21,101 nt of DNA from a virus. Under the pieces are notes generated by a model that worked only from the letters and a program-made list of their open reading frames with translations, had not been told where the DNA came from and did not search any database. Where the stretch lies: the UHGV virus genome UHGV-1793583; one strand, 5' to 3'. This document shows positions 2,760 through 6,895 of the stretch, piece by piece (within the stretch, counting starts at the first letter, position 1; each line of letters starts with the position of its first letter). The position numbers and the translations under genes were made by a program.

Positions 2760-2891
2760 ATGGAAGAGTGGTATAAAAATTTATTAATTATGTTTCTTTC
2801 TGAAAATTGGGCGCTATTTGAGCGCTTTTGCGAGGAACATGGTGAAGACCCTAATGATATTTATCACGATCTTGGGGGTGAAGATGATTGA
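2760..2891 (+). CDS. small acidic protein (43 aa), not in supplied track
   Basis: ATG immediately after upstream stop (TAAATG), GAGGG about 9 nt upstream; MEEWYKNLLIMFLSENWALFERFCEEHGEDPNDIYHDLGGEDD; stop overlaps next start (ATGATTGA). Confidence 0.3.
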   Translation: MEEWYKNLLIMFLSENWALFERFCEEHGEDPNDIYHDLGGEDD

Positions 2892-3081
2892 ATGCCTTAT
2901 TGTTGCGGTAGTTATAATTTACCTGGCTGGTGTCATTTTAATGGGAGCTTTTCAGAAAGCTGTTGATAGTGACGGCATTATTTGGTTCGAGCTAGTCTTC
3001 TGGCCTTTCATTACGATATACGCATTCTGTGACGCCATGCGCGTTAACATCATGCGAGCTATTAAGGAGCGCAAGAAATGA
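2884..3081 (+). CDS. small membrane protein (65 aa)
   Basis: ATG at 2884 preceded by GGGGG; MIECLIVAVVIIYLAGVILMGAF... has two hydrophobic stretches; track start 2818 is TTG with no RBS. Confidence 0.45.
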   Translation: MIECLIVAVVIIYLAGVILMGAFQKAVDSDGIIWFELVFWPFITIYAFCDAMRVNIMRAIKERKK

Positions 3082-3433: not shown

Positions 3434-3441
3434 AGCCGTAT

Positions 3442-3470
3442 TTGCAGAGCGTAAACAAACAGATTAAAAT
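3442..3470 (+). promoter_or_regulatory. sigma70-like promoter TTGCAG-N17-TAAAAT upstream of lysis cassette
   Basis: -35 at 3442-3447, exact 17-bp spacer, -10 at 3465-3470. Confidence 0.5.
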
Positions 3471-3498
3471 ATTACCTAACAATGCGAAATTGTAATTA

Positions 3499-3520
3499 CC
3501 CGGCCCCGCGCCGGGTTTTT
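3499..3520 (+). terminator. intrinsic terminator (CCCGGC-loop-GCCGGG + T5)
   Basis: 6-bp GC stem, 5-nt loop, then TTTTT; about 30 nt downstream of the promoter -10 and 20 nt before the holin RBS. Confidence 0.65.
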
Positions 3521-3540: not shown

Positions 3541-3741
3541 ATGTTCGACAGAATACGGGAGGCGTGCGCGTATGTGACTGGGGCCGTAACTGCTTTTTTC
3601 GGCGCGATAACCATCAATGATATTGCCGTCTTTGTGGGTATCTTATCAACCATAGGCACATTTGCCGTTAATTATTACTTCAAATCACAGGAGAACAAGC
3701 GAGCGCAAGAGGAACACGACGCGCGAATGGGGAATAAGTAA
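3541..3741 (+). CDS. holin, two-TMD pinholin-like (66 aa)
   Basis: GGAGGT RBS; two hydrophobic segments and charged C-terminus; directly precedes SAR endolysin. Confidence 0.75.
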   Translation: MFDRIREACAYVTGAVTAFFGAITINDIAVFVGILSTIGTFAVNYYFKSQENKRAQEEHDARMGNK

Positions 3742-4233
3742 ATGATTAGCCAATCGCTGAAAAACAAGATTGTTGCGGCGGCGGCTGGTGGTGCAATCGC
3801 TATTGCGGCTGTAATGATTAAGCAATTAGAGGGCGTGGAATACGATCCTTATCGTGATGTTGTTGGTGTATGGACTGTTTGCTACGGTCACACCGGAAAA
3901 GACATCATGCTTGGGAAGACTTACACGCAATCAGAATGCGATGCTTTGTTAAATAAAGATCTACACAAGACCGCAAAAGCGATTGACCCATATATTAAAG
4001 TCGAAATATCAGATTTTACCCGCGCAGCACTTTATTCATTCGCCTATAACGTAGGCGCAACCAACTTCAAAACATCAACCTTATTGAAGCTACTCAATGA
4101 CGGCAAGAAATCAGAAGCGTGCGCACAGCTTAAACGCTGGGTATACGCTGGCGGTAAGAAGTGGCATGGTCTGGTTAACCGCCGCGAGGTTGAATATGCC
4201 GTTTGCGAATGGGGTGAGAAATGGACAAGGTGA
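3742..4233 (+). CDS. SAR endolysin, T4/P21-type lysozyme (GH24-like), 163 aa
   Basis: N-terminal Ala/Gly-rich signal-anchor-release segment ([16 protein letters not shown]); E-x8-D-x5-T catalytic spacing in [24 protein letters not shown]; resembles phage 21 R as recalled. Confidence 0.85.
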
Positions 4234-4691
4234 AGACGTTAATCATCGCCGCTATCGTTTGTGTCGTTGTTGGGCTTGTTGCCGCGCTTAGTCACTGCCA
4301 GTCAGTGATAAACACAATGCAAAGCGAGCTAACTACTACGCAGGGCGCACTAAAAACAGCAAGTAACACTATTCAGCAGATGAAGGAGCGAAACGCCGAG
4401 CTGTCAAAACTTGATAAGAGGTATCACGATGAAATTAAAGCTATCAGATCTGACATTGCCGATCTGCGCACTGGTATTGATAACGGCACTATCCGGCTGC
4501 GCGTCAACGCAACGCCCGTGCGAGTGTCTGACCCCACCGGATCCGCCAGCGCCATTGATGGAGCCACCTGTAGACTCACTCCCGACGCTGAATCAGCTTA
4601 TCTATCCCTCAGAGAACAACTAAAAACGAAAGACGCTCAGATCACTGGGTTACAGGACTACATCAAAACGCAGTGCTTACGCAAAGAATAA
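4221..4691 (+). CDS. Rz: Rz-like i-spanin (156 aa)
   Basis: N-terminal TM helix then long charged helical periplasmic domain; overlaps endolysin stop; contains embedded Rz1 frame. Confidence 0.8.
4429..4623 (+). CDS. Rz1: Rz1-like o-spanin lipoprotein, embedded in Rz in +1 frame (64 aa precursor)
   Basis: ATG 4429 with AAGAGG 8 nt upstream; signal peptide with lipobox LSGC; proline-rich mature part [12 protein letters not shown]. Confidence 0.75.
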   Translation: MKLKLSDLTLPICALVLITALSGCASTQRPCECLTPPDPPAPLMEPPVDSLPTLNQLIYPSENN

Positions 4692-4970
4692 CAGCGCGTG
4701 GACGTGTCGCCGTTTCCGCCAGCCAGCCATAACCGGGCCAATCCTTCCCGCGAGCGGCGGCGGAAAAGTCAAAAACACGTAATACCGGGTAAACAACCTC
4801 ATTAACAGGTCAGGCGCTACCTGGGTAGAAGAAAGCGCCATTATACAGTTTTATAAAATTCTGAAAACGGTACTCATGCAGCGCCGTTTTTAGTGTTTTA
4901 TAGCTGTTTTCACTCCCTGCGGTGTCCAGTTTTGCGGGGGTTATATTTTTCAGGATAGAGGAATATTCTG

Positions 4971-5555
4971 ATGGCTAAGGCTAAAGGCATCAAGTTGCCT
5001 CAATTCAAAGTTCCGCTCTTTGAGCATACAACTGTTTTCTTCTGCCCGACCCGCGACATGTTTTATGAATTTTGCGAGAAGGCAGGGATTCCGATCGAAC
5101 CTGATTTCGAACTGGCAGGCGGCCTGACATTAACCTGCACGGGTGAGAAAGGCGGTAACTTCTACGTGATCGCAGTATTCGATAATGAGTTAGGAACGCT
5201 GGTACATGAATGCGCCCACACTACGTTCCACGTTTTAAGCGATGTAGGCGTCGTGGCAACCACTGATCCAACTCACCCGGCAAACGAGACTTATGCTTAC
5301 ATGGTAGGCCGCATCTTTGACGCATTCTTCCCGATCCTTGCTGAATCAAACGAAGCACAGGTTGCAGCAATGCAGGCGGCTGAAGTCGTTGAGCAGGCAT
5401 TGGAGCAGGCAGAACAGGCGACTAAATCAGCAGAACAGGCAGTAGAACAGACAGAGGAGCAGAAAGAAGAGAAAAAACCAGCTAAGAAAGGCAAACGTAA
5501 GCCTAAAGCAAAAGAAGCGCTTGTACCGCGCGTGATGAGCTTTAAACGGGGGTGA
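4971..5555 (+). CDS. HExxH-motif protein (putative zinc-metallopeptidase-like) with Glu/Gln/Ala helical linker and Lys-rich tail, 194 aa
   Basis: Motif LVHECAHTTFH; C-terminus KKPAKKGKRKPKAKE; GGATAGAGGA RBS; family not identifiable by eye. Confidence 0.6.
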   Translation: MAKAKGIKLPQFKVPLFEHTTVFFCPTRDMFYEFCEKAGIPIEPDFELAGGLTLTCTGEKGGNFYVIAVFDNELGTLVHECAHTTFHVLSDVGVVATTDPTHPANETYAYMVGRIFDAFFPILAESNEAQVAAMQAAEVVEQALEQAEQATKSAEQAVEQTEEQKEEKKPAKKGKRKPKAKEALVPRVMSFKRG

Positions 5556-5557
5556 TT

Positions 5558-5626
5558 ATGGTTACTTTCCTGTTAGGTTTATTTATCGGAATGGCTGCGG
5601 CTGTAATATTGCTGGTTGGTGAATAA
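5558..5626 (+). CDS. hydrophobic micropeptide 1 (22 aa, MVTFLLGLFIGMAAAVILLVGE)
   Basis: ATG 3 nt after upstream stop, GGGGGTGA RBS; single predicted TM helix. Confidence 0.4.
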   Translation: MVTFLLGLFIGMAAAVILLVGE

Positions 5627-5630
5627 TGTT

Positions 5631-5747
5631 ATGGATGATTATATCATTGCCGGATTGATCGGCATTTCTGTATATCTGGTGGGTTTTATTGCAGTTGCAC
5701 TAATAAACGCAAAGATCAAGCGCTGGGTGGAGGGGCAAGATGATTGA
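5631..5747 (+). CDS. hydrophobic micropeptide 2 (38 aa, MDDYIIAGLIGISVYLVGFIAVALINAKIKRWVEGQDD)
   Basis: ATG 5 nt after previous stop; single TM helix, charged C-terminus. Confidence 0.4.
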   Translation: MDDYIIAGLIGISVYLVGFIAVALINAKIKRWVEGQDD

Positions 5748-5814
5748 CCCACTCGTTATCCTTTCTTTATGCGTCGCTGTATGGCTGGCGATCATGATAT
5801 TCATTGAAAGCTGA
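5740..5814 (+). CDS. hydrophobic micropeptide 3 (24 aa, MIDPLVILSLCVAVWLAIMIFIES)
   Basis: GGAGGGG 6 nt upstream; ATGATTGA overlap with previous ORF. Confidence 0.4.
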   Translation: MIDPLVILSLCVAVWLAIMIFIES

Positions 5815-5825
5815 AGGTATTCACC

Positions 5826-5900
5826 ATGAATATTTACGATCTCATCTGGTGGTCAGTGGTCGCCGTCATTATCTATTTCTGGTGGAAGAATGTTGTATAG
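5826..5900 (+). CDS. hydrophobic micropeptide 4 (24 aa, MNIYDLIWWSVVAVIIYFWWKNVV)
   Basis: GAAGG 7 nt upstream of ATG; single TM helix. Confidence 0.4.
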   Translation: MNIYDLIWWSVVAVIIYFWWKNVV

Positions 5901-5908
5901 GTGACGGC

Positions 5909-6013
5909 ATGGATATATTCGAATTACTGGCGATTATGTGCGGAATGATGCTAGGCGTTGTCGCCATAATCATAATCATAATCATCGGCCTTGTTATGGG
6001 TAGCATCAAATGA
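5909..6013 (+). CDS. hydrophobic micropeptide 5 (34 aa, MDIFELLAIMCGMMLGVVAIIIIIIIGLVMGSIK)
   Basis: AGGTGA upstream of ATG 5909; contains (ATAATC)x3 repeat encoding the Ile run; track ORF 5804..6013 is the non-ATG extension. Confidence 0.4.
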   Translation: MDIFELLAIMCGMMLGVVAIIIIIIIGLVMGSIK

Positions 6014-6090
6014 ACGCATACGAAATGCTATTGCTGGTGGCTGTTATTACAGTTATTGCCGTTGATTTCTATCGAGGGTTTAAAAGATGA
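6010..6090 (+). CDS. hydrophobic micropeptide 6 (26 aa, MNAYEMLLLVAVITVIAVDFYRGFKR)
   Basis: ATGA start/stop overlap with micropeptide 5. Confidence 0.4.
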   Translation: MNAYEMLLLVAVITVIAVDFYRGFKR

Positions 6091-6158
6091 GAGAAGCAGA
6101 CTTCTTTTGCATGATTATAGTGATTGTCATCGTTGCGGTGCTTTTAAGTGTTAACTGA
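6087..6158 (+). CDS. hydrophobic micropeptide 7 (23 aa, MREADFFCMIIVIVIVAVLLSVN)
   Basis: ATGA start/stop overlap with micropeptide 6. Confidence 0.4.
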   Translation: MREADFFCMIIVIVIVAVLLSVN

Positions 6159-6174
6159 ATCGCAGGAGTTAAAA

Positions 6175-6243
6175 ATGAAATGGCTTGATTTCTTTTTCCT
6201 GATTGTCGCAATTGTTCTAACCATGACCGCGCTGACTCAATAG
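6175..6243 (+). CDS. hydrophobic micropeptide 8 (22 aa, MKWLDFFFLIVAIVLTMTALTQ)
   Basis: AGGAG 7 nt upstream of ATG 6175. Confidence 0.4.
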   Translation: MKWLDFFFLIVAIVLTMTALTQ

Positions 6244-6311
6244 GTTGTGGCTTGGACGCGCATTTTATGCGCTTCCTAAATTCATCAAGTCAAATAAAGT
6301 GGATGGTAACG

Positions 6312-6503
6312 ATGAAAGAGCTATTCGACTTTCTGGAAACGGTAACATACTGCGCAACATTAATTGCGTGTTTATATATTCTGTGCAAATGGTTTTTGAG
6401 AGGTGAAATATGGCCCGCACTAAAAAGGCAAAAGCTGACGATAAAAAGCCAGCAGCTAAAAAGGTTGGCCGTCCGCATGGTTATACCGAAGAAAAGGCAT
6501 TAG
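6312..6503 (+). CDS. possible ninth membrane micropeptide (MKELFDFLETVTYCATLIACLYILCKWFL...); 3' part overlaps terS
   Basis: Same N-terminal pattern as the array members; frame runs 94 nt into terS, so true extent uncertain. Confidence 0.25.
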   Translation: MKELFDFLETVTYCATLIACLYILCKWFLRGEIWPALKRQKLTIKSQQLKRLAVRMVIPKKRH

Positions 6504-6895
6504 AGATCTGTGAGCTGGTGGCGGACGGTCAAAGTATTAACAGGATTTCGAAGATGCCTGATATGCCTGCGCGTTCAACAATCCTTAAATGGTTCAAAGA
6601 CGTGCCAGAGTTCTCGGACATGTACATACGCGCGAAAGAGATCGGTTTTGAGGTATTGGCTGATGAGATTATCGACATAGCTGACGCAGCGGAGAACACC
6701 GATAAAGACCAATGCCGCCGCCATCAATTGATGATTGAAACCCGTAAATGGCTATTGGCAAAACTGCAACCGCGTAAGTATGGCGAACGCGTTACGCAGG
6801 AAATCGTAGGCAACAGGGAAGAAGCACCAGTACAGGTAGAAGTCACAAAAGAAGAGATTGCCCGCATCGTTCAGGAGGTAGAAGATGAGGTGTGA
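6410..6895 (+). CDS. terS: terminase small subunit (161 aa)
   Basis: Strong RBS GAGAGGTGA; basic N-terminus, HTH-like segment, acidic C-terminus; directly precedes and overlaps terL start. Confidence 0.75.
   Translation: MARTKKAKADDKKPAAKKVGRPHGYTEEKALEICELVADGQSINRISKMPDMPARSTILKWFKDVPEFSDMYIRAKEIGFEVLADEIIDIADAAENTDKDQCRRHQLMIETRKWLLAKLQPRKYGERVTQEIVGNREEAPVQVEVTKEEIARIVQEVEDEV

Follow-up and report, generated by a model that had tools for sequence, protein, structure and literature searches.

We describe here a tandem array of very small genes in the UHGV virus genome UHGV-1793583, found in a stretch of 21,101 nucleotides (nt) that is referred to below as the window. The array lies between a gene for a protein of 194 amino acids (aa) and terS, the gene for the small terminase subunit, and consists of short open reading frames (ORFs) that each encode a peptide with a single predicted hydrophobic helix. 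These micro-ORFs are real, selected protein-coding genes, and the array that they form is coupled, modular, lineage-restricted and set in a late-operon position, with cassettes that are individually dispensable. Small membrane proteins of phages are already known; what is new is their organization as tandem, collinear, combinatorial cassettes, which was previously undescribed. Judged by its sequence, the window is from a temperate phage of E. coli in the mEp021 ("mEpimmI") group, as the region is 83–93% identical to mEp044, MagusPhagus, mEp013, mEp010, mEp021, mEp515, and mEp554, and of 5426 complete E. coli genomes searched, 35 have a matching prophage, with a highest identity of 98.2%. This phage group has been reported to be prevalent in the human gut (PMC11893012).

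The region from 5200 to 6800 was read for ORFs of at least 20 codons. Eight consecutive ATG-initiated ORFs of 22–38 codons, all on the plus strand and each with one hydrophobic helix, occupy 5558–6243, and a ninth (Z), also on the plus strand and likewise encoding one predicted hydrophobic helix, starts at 6312. They are listed here with the number of related loci, among the 53 compared below, in which each is found.

5558–5626, plus strand: micro-ORF A, 22 aa (MVTFLLGLFIGMAAAVILLVGE), with a GxxxG/Ala-rich helix; in 27 of 53 loci
5631–5747, plus strand: micro-ORF B, 38 aa (MDDYIIAGLIGISVYLVGFIAVALINAKIKRWVEGQDD); in 45 of 53 loci
5740–5814, plus strand: micro-ORF C, 24 aa (MIDPLVILSLCVAVWLAIMIFIES); in 46 of 53 loci
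5826–5900, plus strand: micro-ORF D, 24 aa (MNIYDLIWWSVVAVIIYFWWKNVV), Trp-rich; in 35 of 53 loci
5909–6013, plus strand: micro-ORF E, 34 aa (MDIFELLAIMCGMMLGVVAIIIIIIIGLVMGSIK); in 25 of 53 loci
6010–6090, plus strand: micro-ORF F, 26 aa (MNAYEMLLLVAVITVIAVDFYRGFKR); in 51 of 53 loci
6087–6158, plus strand: micro-ORF G, 23 aa (MREADFFCMIIVIVIVAVLLSVN); in 19 of 53 loci
6175–6243, plus strand: micro-ORF H, 22 aa (MKWLDFFFLIVAIVLTMTALTQ); in 50 of 53 loci
6244–6311, plus strand: spacer of 68 nt between H and Z, the site of the extra cassettes I, J, K, and L in relatives
6312–6503, plus strand: micro-ORF Z, which in relatives encodes 27–28 aa (MKELFDFLETVTYCATLIACLYILCKWF)

The 194-aa gene ends in a stop codon (5553–5555) that falls within the Shine-Dalgarno (SD) sequence GGGGGTGA (5548–5555) of micro-ORF A, and the first ATG of the array is found 2 nt past this stop codon. 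From there the genes follow one another closely, with gaps of 4 nt between A and B, 11 nt between C and D, 8 nt between D and E, 16 nt between G and H, and 68 nt between H and Z, and with overlaps of 8 nt between B and C (ATGATTGA) and of 4 nt (ATGA) both between E and F and between F and G. The E/F spacing of −4 was found again in 18 loci. Micro-ORF E also contains a perfect hexanucleotide tandem repeat (CATAAT, 3.5 copies, 5965–5985) which encodes a run of seven isoleucines; relatives are one unit shorter and encode 32 aa rather than 34 aa, with two isoleucines fewer, so that the helix is polymorphic in length, and in frame, through a repeat that is prone to slippage.

The preliminary description of this DNA had placed eight such ORFs here, and all eight were recovered at those positions. 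Within 5556–6312, 85% of the DNA is covered by eight plus-strand ORFs that begin with ATG and encode hydrophobic peptides of 20 aa or more, and none was found on the minus strand of the same interval. Across 2000 dinucleotide-preserving shuffles the mean number of such ORFs was 0.79 (standard deviation 0.83, maximum 4) against the eight observed. A stretch of the same length (757 nt) taken anywhere else in the window has at most two, whichever the strand, and a scan of the window found four hydrophobic micro-ORFs on the plus strand outside of the array, all scattered. One explanation to be weighed is that these are functionless chance ORFs in T-rich DNA, as the region is 34% T and 41% G+C, a composition favoring hydrophobic codons, and high hydrophobicity in intergenic small ORFs can result simply from AT content (PMC11188072). 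The shuffles, together with the frame-specific purifying selection, the conservation in 53 loci, the SD enrichment and the dense coverage of the locus given below, effectively refute this explanation.

The ratio of nonsynonymous to synonymous substitution rates (dN/dS), calculated by the NG86 method and pooled over families, is 0.21 in the frame of the micro-ORFs as compared with 0.92 when the alignments are read in the +1 frame and 1.54 in the +2 frame; these values are pairwise sums over related sequences, using only intact ORFs of modal length, and their independence is somewhat overstated. By family, dN/dS is 0.25 for A (1.01 and 2.90 in the shifted frames), 0.18 for B, 0.28 for C, 0.29 for D, 0.11 for E, 0.22 for F, 0.21 for G, 0.10 for H, and 0.08 for Z, and it falls within 0.08–0.31 for every family other than K (0.67, from three sequences). 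For comparison, the flanking genes gave 0.08 (terS) and 0.18 (the 194-aa gene, a homologue of mEp021 gp49). Variable alignment columns are distributed as 128/81/229 over the three codon positions (chi-square p=1e-17). The signal is echoed, more weakly, in a single antisense frame, which shares the wobble positions and has a dN/dS of 0.32; antisense coding was rejected on the grounds that this frame is broken by stops in roughly one-half of the families. Selection on the peptides reaches beyond mere hydrophobicity to a sequence-specific constraint on the helix: replacements of one hydrophobic residue by another occur at 0.37–0.46 of the synonymous rate, and radical replacements at 0.16–0.20.

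Upstream of 75% of the micro-ORF starts there is an SD-like match of 4 nt or more, in comparison to 18% of random positions in the same slots. Among 430 junctions between neighboring micro-ORFs, 417 are either overlaps (160, of which 83 are of the ATGA type and 40 are of 8 nt) or gaps of 0–25 nt (257). Taken together with the dN/dS values and the consensus scans for promoters and terminators described below, these results support the preliminary description in its central claim, which was that of a coupled, co-directional array of single-helix genes within a late transcription unit.

The set of 53 related loci used throughout includes 46 that were added by a terS scan of IMG/VR. In these, the array slot, bounded by the 194-aa gene and terS, ranges from 481 to 1317 nt and holds 3–13 hydrophobic micro-ORFs, which span 86% of the total slot DNA, sort into about 20 families, and encode peptides of up to 47 aa. 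The order of the cassettes is strictly collinear, A-B-C-D-E-F-G-H-I-J-K-L-Z, with the minor families a, b, d, m, n, o, p, q, and z interleaved, and yet the content is so variable that the 53 loci display 40 distinct architectures, that of the window being ABCDEFGHZ. Z or its variant z is universal (53 of 53), and F (51), H (50), and C (46) are near-universal. The number of cassettes is five in mEp021, ten in mEp010, and twelve in MagusPhagus; the first two of these are laboratory phages that grow on K-12. Cassettes I and J are always found together, with an overlap of 8 nt, and the paralogues G and K, which sit at different array positions, never occur together in any of the 40 architectures. 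Conserved synteny and codon-level conservation in related phages had been named in the preliminary description as a means of checking the genes, and both were found, the former as collinearity in all 53 loci and the latter as purifying selection confined to the reading frame of the micro-ORFs.

The absence of stop-gain variants from the collected sequences is circular, since only intact ORFs were collected, and it was replaced by a search for decayed copies in the uncovered slot DNA. Seven were found, versus about 480 intact copies: a frameshifted D (L009), a D in which ATG has become ATA (L025), a remnant of J (L037), and, in four loci of one lineage, an AAT to AAC change that is synonymous in I and destroys the ATG of the overlapping J. 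Single cassettes can thus be lost, but such loss is rare.

Beyond this group of phages, no array was found in the terL relatives Pseudomonas phage VB_EV13 (66%) and Vibrio phage pYD38-B (51%), nor in the P22-like phages ST64T and HK620, which have a homologue of the gp49 N-terminal domain. GTDB species representatives gave no match either to a DNA pattern for H or to terS. A degenerate IUPAC DNA pattern for F retrieved 42 IMG/VR contigs, essentially the same ones as were found with terS.

Across 21 families, the peptides have uncharged spans of 15–30 residues, and in those of 22–38 aa the spans are of 15–26 residues. The flank on the N-terminal side of the helix is net negative in 16 of the 21 families and positive in one, and the C-terminal flank is positive in 10 and negative in two. 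Most families have C-terminal flanks of just 0–5 residues, with L alone carrying an 11-residue basic tail, so the charged C-terminus assigned to each peptide in the preliminary description is not general, even though a net positive flank does occur in about half of the families. Because the N-terminal flanks are acidic and the C-terminal flanks neutral or basic, the positive-inside rule predicts an N-out/C-in topology for essentially all families. This uniform predicted orientation bears on the possibility that the peptides assemble into one hetero-oligomeric complex in the membrane, as a channel or multi-helix protein in "split" form, or that they are the remains of a fragmented polytopic gene. 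The fixed gene order, the coupled and presumably equimolar translation, and the constant pairing of I with J would all suit such an arrangement, but the helices of a polytopic protein would alternate in orientation, each unit has its own ATG and SD sequence, and membership is free, with 40 architectures and as few as three units. We therefore consider this explanation very improbable.

A single paralogous family generated by tandem duplication had also been suggested. Using a null in which residues were shuffled separately within the N-cap, core, and tail, similarity above expectation was found for F-d, D-d, Z-z, H-K, G-K, and G-H (z = 4.3–8.9), which defines the paralogous subgroups {D,d,F}, {G,H,K}, and {Z,z}; most other pairs are indistinguishable from shared composition. 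In the window, no DNA repeats of cassette length were found, only short two-copy matches. Duplication thus accounts for the subgroups, and the proposal of a single family is only partly supported. The N-terminal motif said to be shared by several of the peptides likewise survives only in a looser form: the full pattern was not borne out, and the trait common to nearly all families is an acidic residue immediately before the hydrophobic core. A universal recombination "linker" at the gene starts was considered as well and rejected, as the families share only the ATG and a G-rich SD zone. We would like to note that most family C peptides in relatives (e.g. L001, 2841–2915) read MIDPLIILSACVAV… and contain a lipobox-like LSAC, while the copy in the window reads LSLC and its N-terminus has no basic n-region; the lipobox likeness of C is probably coincidental.

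The genes surrounding the array are as follows.

3541–3741: class II holin (PF16080, E=1.8e-14)
3742–4233: endolysin, with a Gly/Ala-rich, weakly hydrophobic N-terminal helix
4221–4691: Rz, with an Rz1-type lipoprotein ORF (…LSGCAS…) embedded in another frame at 4411–4623
4692–4970: spacer of 279 nt between Rz and the 194-aa gene, with no convincing ORF
4971–5555, plus strand: 194-aa gene, homologue of mEp021 gp49, with an invariant HExxH and a charged K-rich tail
6410–6895, plus strand: terS, small terminase subunit of the Sf6 type (PF20901, E=3e-37)

Downstream of the array, terS is followed by terL and the portal gene. Just 5' of the holin gene lies a promoter-like site (TTTGCA-18-TAAAAT, 3441–3470) with a strong GC-rich terminator (3498–3516) immediately after it, a layout similar to that of lambda pR'-tR', where the late genes are read only after antitermination. 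Scans for promoters and terminators, which were simple consensus matches, revealed no plus-strand promoter-like site between 3470 and 7000 and no strong or convincing terminator within or after the array. On the minus strand of the array there is one weak promoter-like site (9/12, 5997–5969), fewer than expected from shuffles of the region. The array would most simply be part of a late, antiterminated transcript running on into terS. Within the 279-nt spacer, a weak hairpin with a T-run (AAACGG…CCGTTTTT, ~4865–4891) coincides in position with a terminator annotated in the mEp021 record, and a minus-strand promoter-like site (10/12) is present at 4867–4840.

The preliminary description had set the array between the lysis cassette and the terminase genes. 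The terminase side of this claim holds, but the array is not directly adjacent to the lysis genes, since it begins 866 nt past the stop codon of Rz, with the 279-nt spacer and the 194-aa gene intervening. The position nevertheless raises the main rival to the interpretation that we prefer (see below), namely that the peptides are modulators of lysis timing, either as antiholin-like helices acting on the holin or on the signal-anchor-release (SAR) domain of the endolysin, or as a collective membrane load which lowers the proton-motive force and so sets the time of triggering. The array is in the same late unit as the holin, endolysin, and Rz/Rz1 genes and downstream of them; the N-terminus of the endolysin looks like a SAR-type anchor, so that lysis is probably sensitive to membrane potential; A, B, and E have GxxxG-type motifs, as in holin helices; and actinophages can have up to four consecutive holin-like genes after lysA (PMC9671378). 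On the other hand, a Pfam-recognized holin already occupies the canonical position, and none of the array peptides scanned against PHROGs and NCBIfam has a significant match to a holin family, the best being that of L to holin phrog_920 (E=0.04). The peptides are not encoded beside the endolysin, and most of them do not have the charged C-terminal domain that is typical of holins; on these grounds, assignment to the holin/antiholin class was rejected. Furthermore, the endolysin is 90–100% identical in all but one locus, while the content of the array ranges from 3 to 13 cassettes, and no association of any cassette with Rz type was found in the 53 loci. The near-constancy of the endolysin and the independence from Rz type argue weakly against a core role in lysis, and we regard lysis timing as an unlikely, if still serious, explanation.

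At the far end of the array, Z was described as running into terS, and in the window its frame indeed has no stop codon until 6503, 94 nt inside terS. This is due to one extra T that removes the stop codon of Z: the T-run at 6393–6397 is TTTTT in the window and, by alignment, TTTT in the two closest IMG/VR loci and in a 98.5%-identical prophage (NZ_CP036177), all of which encode a Z of 28 aa that stops 10–11 nt ahead of terS. The overrun is unique to the window among the 53 loci, and the extra T either arose by mutation very recently or is an error of sequencing, and is no feature of the system. In 47 of the 53 loci, Z or z ends 10–11 nt 5' of terS, and the SD sequence of terS (GAGGTGA, 6400–6406) is situated where Z normally ends. 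Four more loci terminate the array with the variant z. In five loci (L016, L026, L027, L033, and L053, at ~2835–3000 in each), an acidic, non-hydrophobic ORF of 47 aa (MNDEELKIADEIRKALDSAENNETIYLSEQEVEKMMNEFKLRFGKDD) is found between Z and terS, and in the same five the SD sequence of terS is duplicated; the slot can thus also take a soluble small-protein cassette.

The constant position of Z could also be taken to mean that the array is a translational relay, in which coupled short ORFs deliver or meter ribosomes to terS, or protect the mRNA, and the peptides are by-products. The short ORFs form an unbroken chain between the upstream gene's stop codon and the SD sequence of terS, and its universal last member ends at a nearly fixed distance from terS. 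Such a relay would not, however, call for the observed selection on amino acids, in which even conservative hydrophobic exchanges are disfavored, nor for a hydrophobic helix in every unit. The number of units varies four-fold, and both the soluble ORF between Z and terS in five loci and the ending with z in four are apparently harmless. Accordingly, we find a relay improbable.

In searches of family libraries, the representative peptides of nine families against PHROGs and of eight families against NCBIfam retrieved no significant family, and Rfam yielded no RNA family on either strand of 4600–6600 at E<=1. A phmmer search of B against 1.84 billion representatives returned only B's own cluster, and tblastn of L against 50,697 phage records returned only MagusPhagus. 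Arrays of this kind are undescribed in a review of phage small proteins and in a paper on the Enterobacteriaceae microproteome. The view taken in the preliminary description, that the tandem arrangement has no named precedent, is therefore upheld in the libraries and literature searched, in which no described system of tandem coupled genes was found.

The closest described arrangement is that of the tandem holin-like genes of Gordonia and Mycobacterium phages (PMC9671378, PMC13056207), which like the array are consecutive, co-directional, unrelated membrane-protein genes present in varied combinations in the late region near the lysis genes. These actinophage genes directly follow lysA, number at most four, and encode proteins of 113–168 aa with 1–4 transmembrane domains (PMC9671378), whereas the array has 3–13 genes for peptides of 22–47 aa with one helix and is parted from the lysis genes by another gene. 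According to its authors, an arrangement of the actinophage type is undescribed for phages of Gram-negative hosts (PMC9671378).

The likeness to type I toxins proposed in the preliminary description did not stand up beyond size and hydrophobicity. In E. coli, the toxins of ibs/sib, ldr/rdl, and zorO/orzO are, like the array peptides, hydrophobic (19–35 aa) and encoded in several nearby copies, but each copy has its own promoter and an antisense RNA antitoxin, while the array is a coupled operon with no RNA family and no promoter of its own. That the peptides might be toxin-like killing or addiction peptides which stabilize the prophage would fit with their match to Ibs, Ldr, ShoB, and DinQ in size and hydrophobicity, and with the location of some type I systems in prophages (PMC12648545). 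Set against this are the lack of any antitoxin RNA in the Rfam search, the presence in the array of the one weak minus-strand promoter-like site and no plus-strand one, and the SD sequences and operon coupling, which are not those of individually repressed units. The type I toxin class was rejected on these points, and we give this explanation very little credence.

By functional analogy, the nearest counterparts of the array peptides would be the small regulatory membrane proteins of bacteria, such as AcrZ, MgrB, MgtS, MgtR, SgrT, PmrR, CydX, and KdpF. Like the array peptides, these are of at most 50 aa and have one helix, mostly with the C-terminus inside, as is predicted for the array. Proteins of the AcrZ/MgrB type are the products of single genes, usually beside the target operon or under stress control, and none is known as a coupled combinatorial array; no sequence similarity of the array peptides to them was found with PHROGs, NCBIfam, or the phmmer search of B. 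Small membrane proteins typically bind larger membrane proteins and have no enzymatic domain, and peptides under about 45–50 aa are not targeted co-translationally by the signal recognition particle (SRP) but are inserted post-translationally by YidC or SecYEG (PMC12648545).

Several phage proteins invite comparison as well. HK97 gp15, T4 Imm, P22 SieA, and the single-gene lysis protein Sgl-M (37 aa, targeting MurJ) are small phage membrane proteins that bind a host membrane protein or block DNA entry. They differ from the array peptides in being the products of single genes, in mostly being larger, and in often being expressed from the prophage or early; none is organized in an array, and no homology was found. 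The Pf3 coat protein and M13 procoat are YidC substrates with an acidic N-terminal tail, one helix, and a basic C-terminus, a pattern that predicts N-out/C-in insertion with no signal peptide. The array peptides have the same charge pattern, but these coats are virion proteins of filamentous phages and the phage of the array is tailed and temperate. Nothing suggests that the array peptides are structural.

The interpretation that we tentatively prefer, at slightly under an even chance, is that the peptides are independent inner-membrane helices which bind specific membrane partners, with the array serving as a reshufflable accessory toolbox for takeover of the membrane late in infection. The array would be transcribed late within the lysis-to-packaging unit and translated as a coupled chain from the stop codon of the 194-aa gene to the SD sequence of terS. 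The peptides would then be inserted post-translationally by YidC or SecYEG in the N-out/C-in orientation, where each may work independently as a ligand, in the form of a transmembrane helix, that binds one particular membrane protein of the host or the phage and modulates it, as AcrZ, MgrB, MgtS, and SgrT do. The toolbox might be used, for example, to block the entry of competing phages or to neutralize membrane-anchored host effectors, with Z/z as the universal member, C, F, and H as near-universal ones, and the remaining cassettes as dispensable extras. Membrane insertion, topology, partner binding, and role are all inferred here.

Several observations weigh against this toolbox interpretation. 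A number of the hydrophobic spans are just 15–17 residues long, which is short for a helix that spans the bilayer. The helical moment of variability at 100 degrees, examined over 13 families with few variable sites and low power, showed no significant periodicity along one face (combined p of 0.29) and so gave no positive indication of a packing interface. Proximity to the lysis module and the apparently potential-sensitive lysis system fit lysis timing equally well, some expression from the prophage may occur given that the transcription scans were consensus matches, and the dN/dS comparisons are less independent than their number implies.

We also considered a more specific proposal, in which the array is the membrane counterpart of an anti-defense or exclusion island. 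The helix ligands would each disable or hijack a different inner-membrane protein of the host, and the cassettes would be exchanged to match hosts and competitors. Candidate targets would be membrane-anchored abortive-infection effectors or the proteins through which the DNA of rival phages enters, and the cassettes may have arisen in some cases by duplication and in others perhaps de novo from T-rich DNA. We regard this proposal as doubtful, though a real possibility. If it is true, the accessory genes of phages would gain a new organizational class, and the array would be a natural setting in which to study the origin and diversification of functional single-helix microproteins.

Standard gene callers apply cut-offs that exclude genes as short as 22–38 codons, and as many as 13 selected genes can go unseen in this way within one kilobase. 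The statement in the preliminary description that the locus would be annotated as empty applies to the mEp021 record, in which the array slot is left blank, and nearly so to RefSeq/PGAP, but not to PHANOTATE-based records, in which some micro-ORFs are called as "hypothetical protein". The sole RefSeq/PGAP gene call in the array of a near-identical prophage (L100, NZ_CP036177, 1897–2100, corresponding to 5804–6013 of the window) is a "hypothetical protein" of 67 aa. This call is micro-ORF E stretched upstream to a TTG start codon, through the D region in the frame of E, and is almost certainly a mis-annotation. In public collections, the peptides of at least 30 aa, B included, are present only as unnamed or "hypothetical" proteins, and those of under 30 aa are absent from a collection of 15 billion proteins. 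The paper describing the phage group does not mention the region, and neither "transmembrane" nor "terminase" appears anywhere in its text.

The array offers a compact and tractable set of about 20 natural families of single-helix microproteins in laboratory phages that grow on K-12, and its natural presence/absence variants make the function, targets, and evolution of transmembrane microproteins directly testable. If host membrane proteins are indeed targeted, the peptides would also be leads for small membrane-active inhibitors. Finally, in mEp013 (L004, 1998–2483) an HNH endonuclease gene is found between the homologue of the 194-aa gene and the array, which again points to the slot as a hot spot for insertions.

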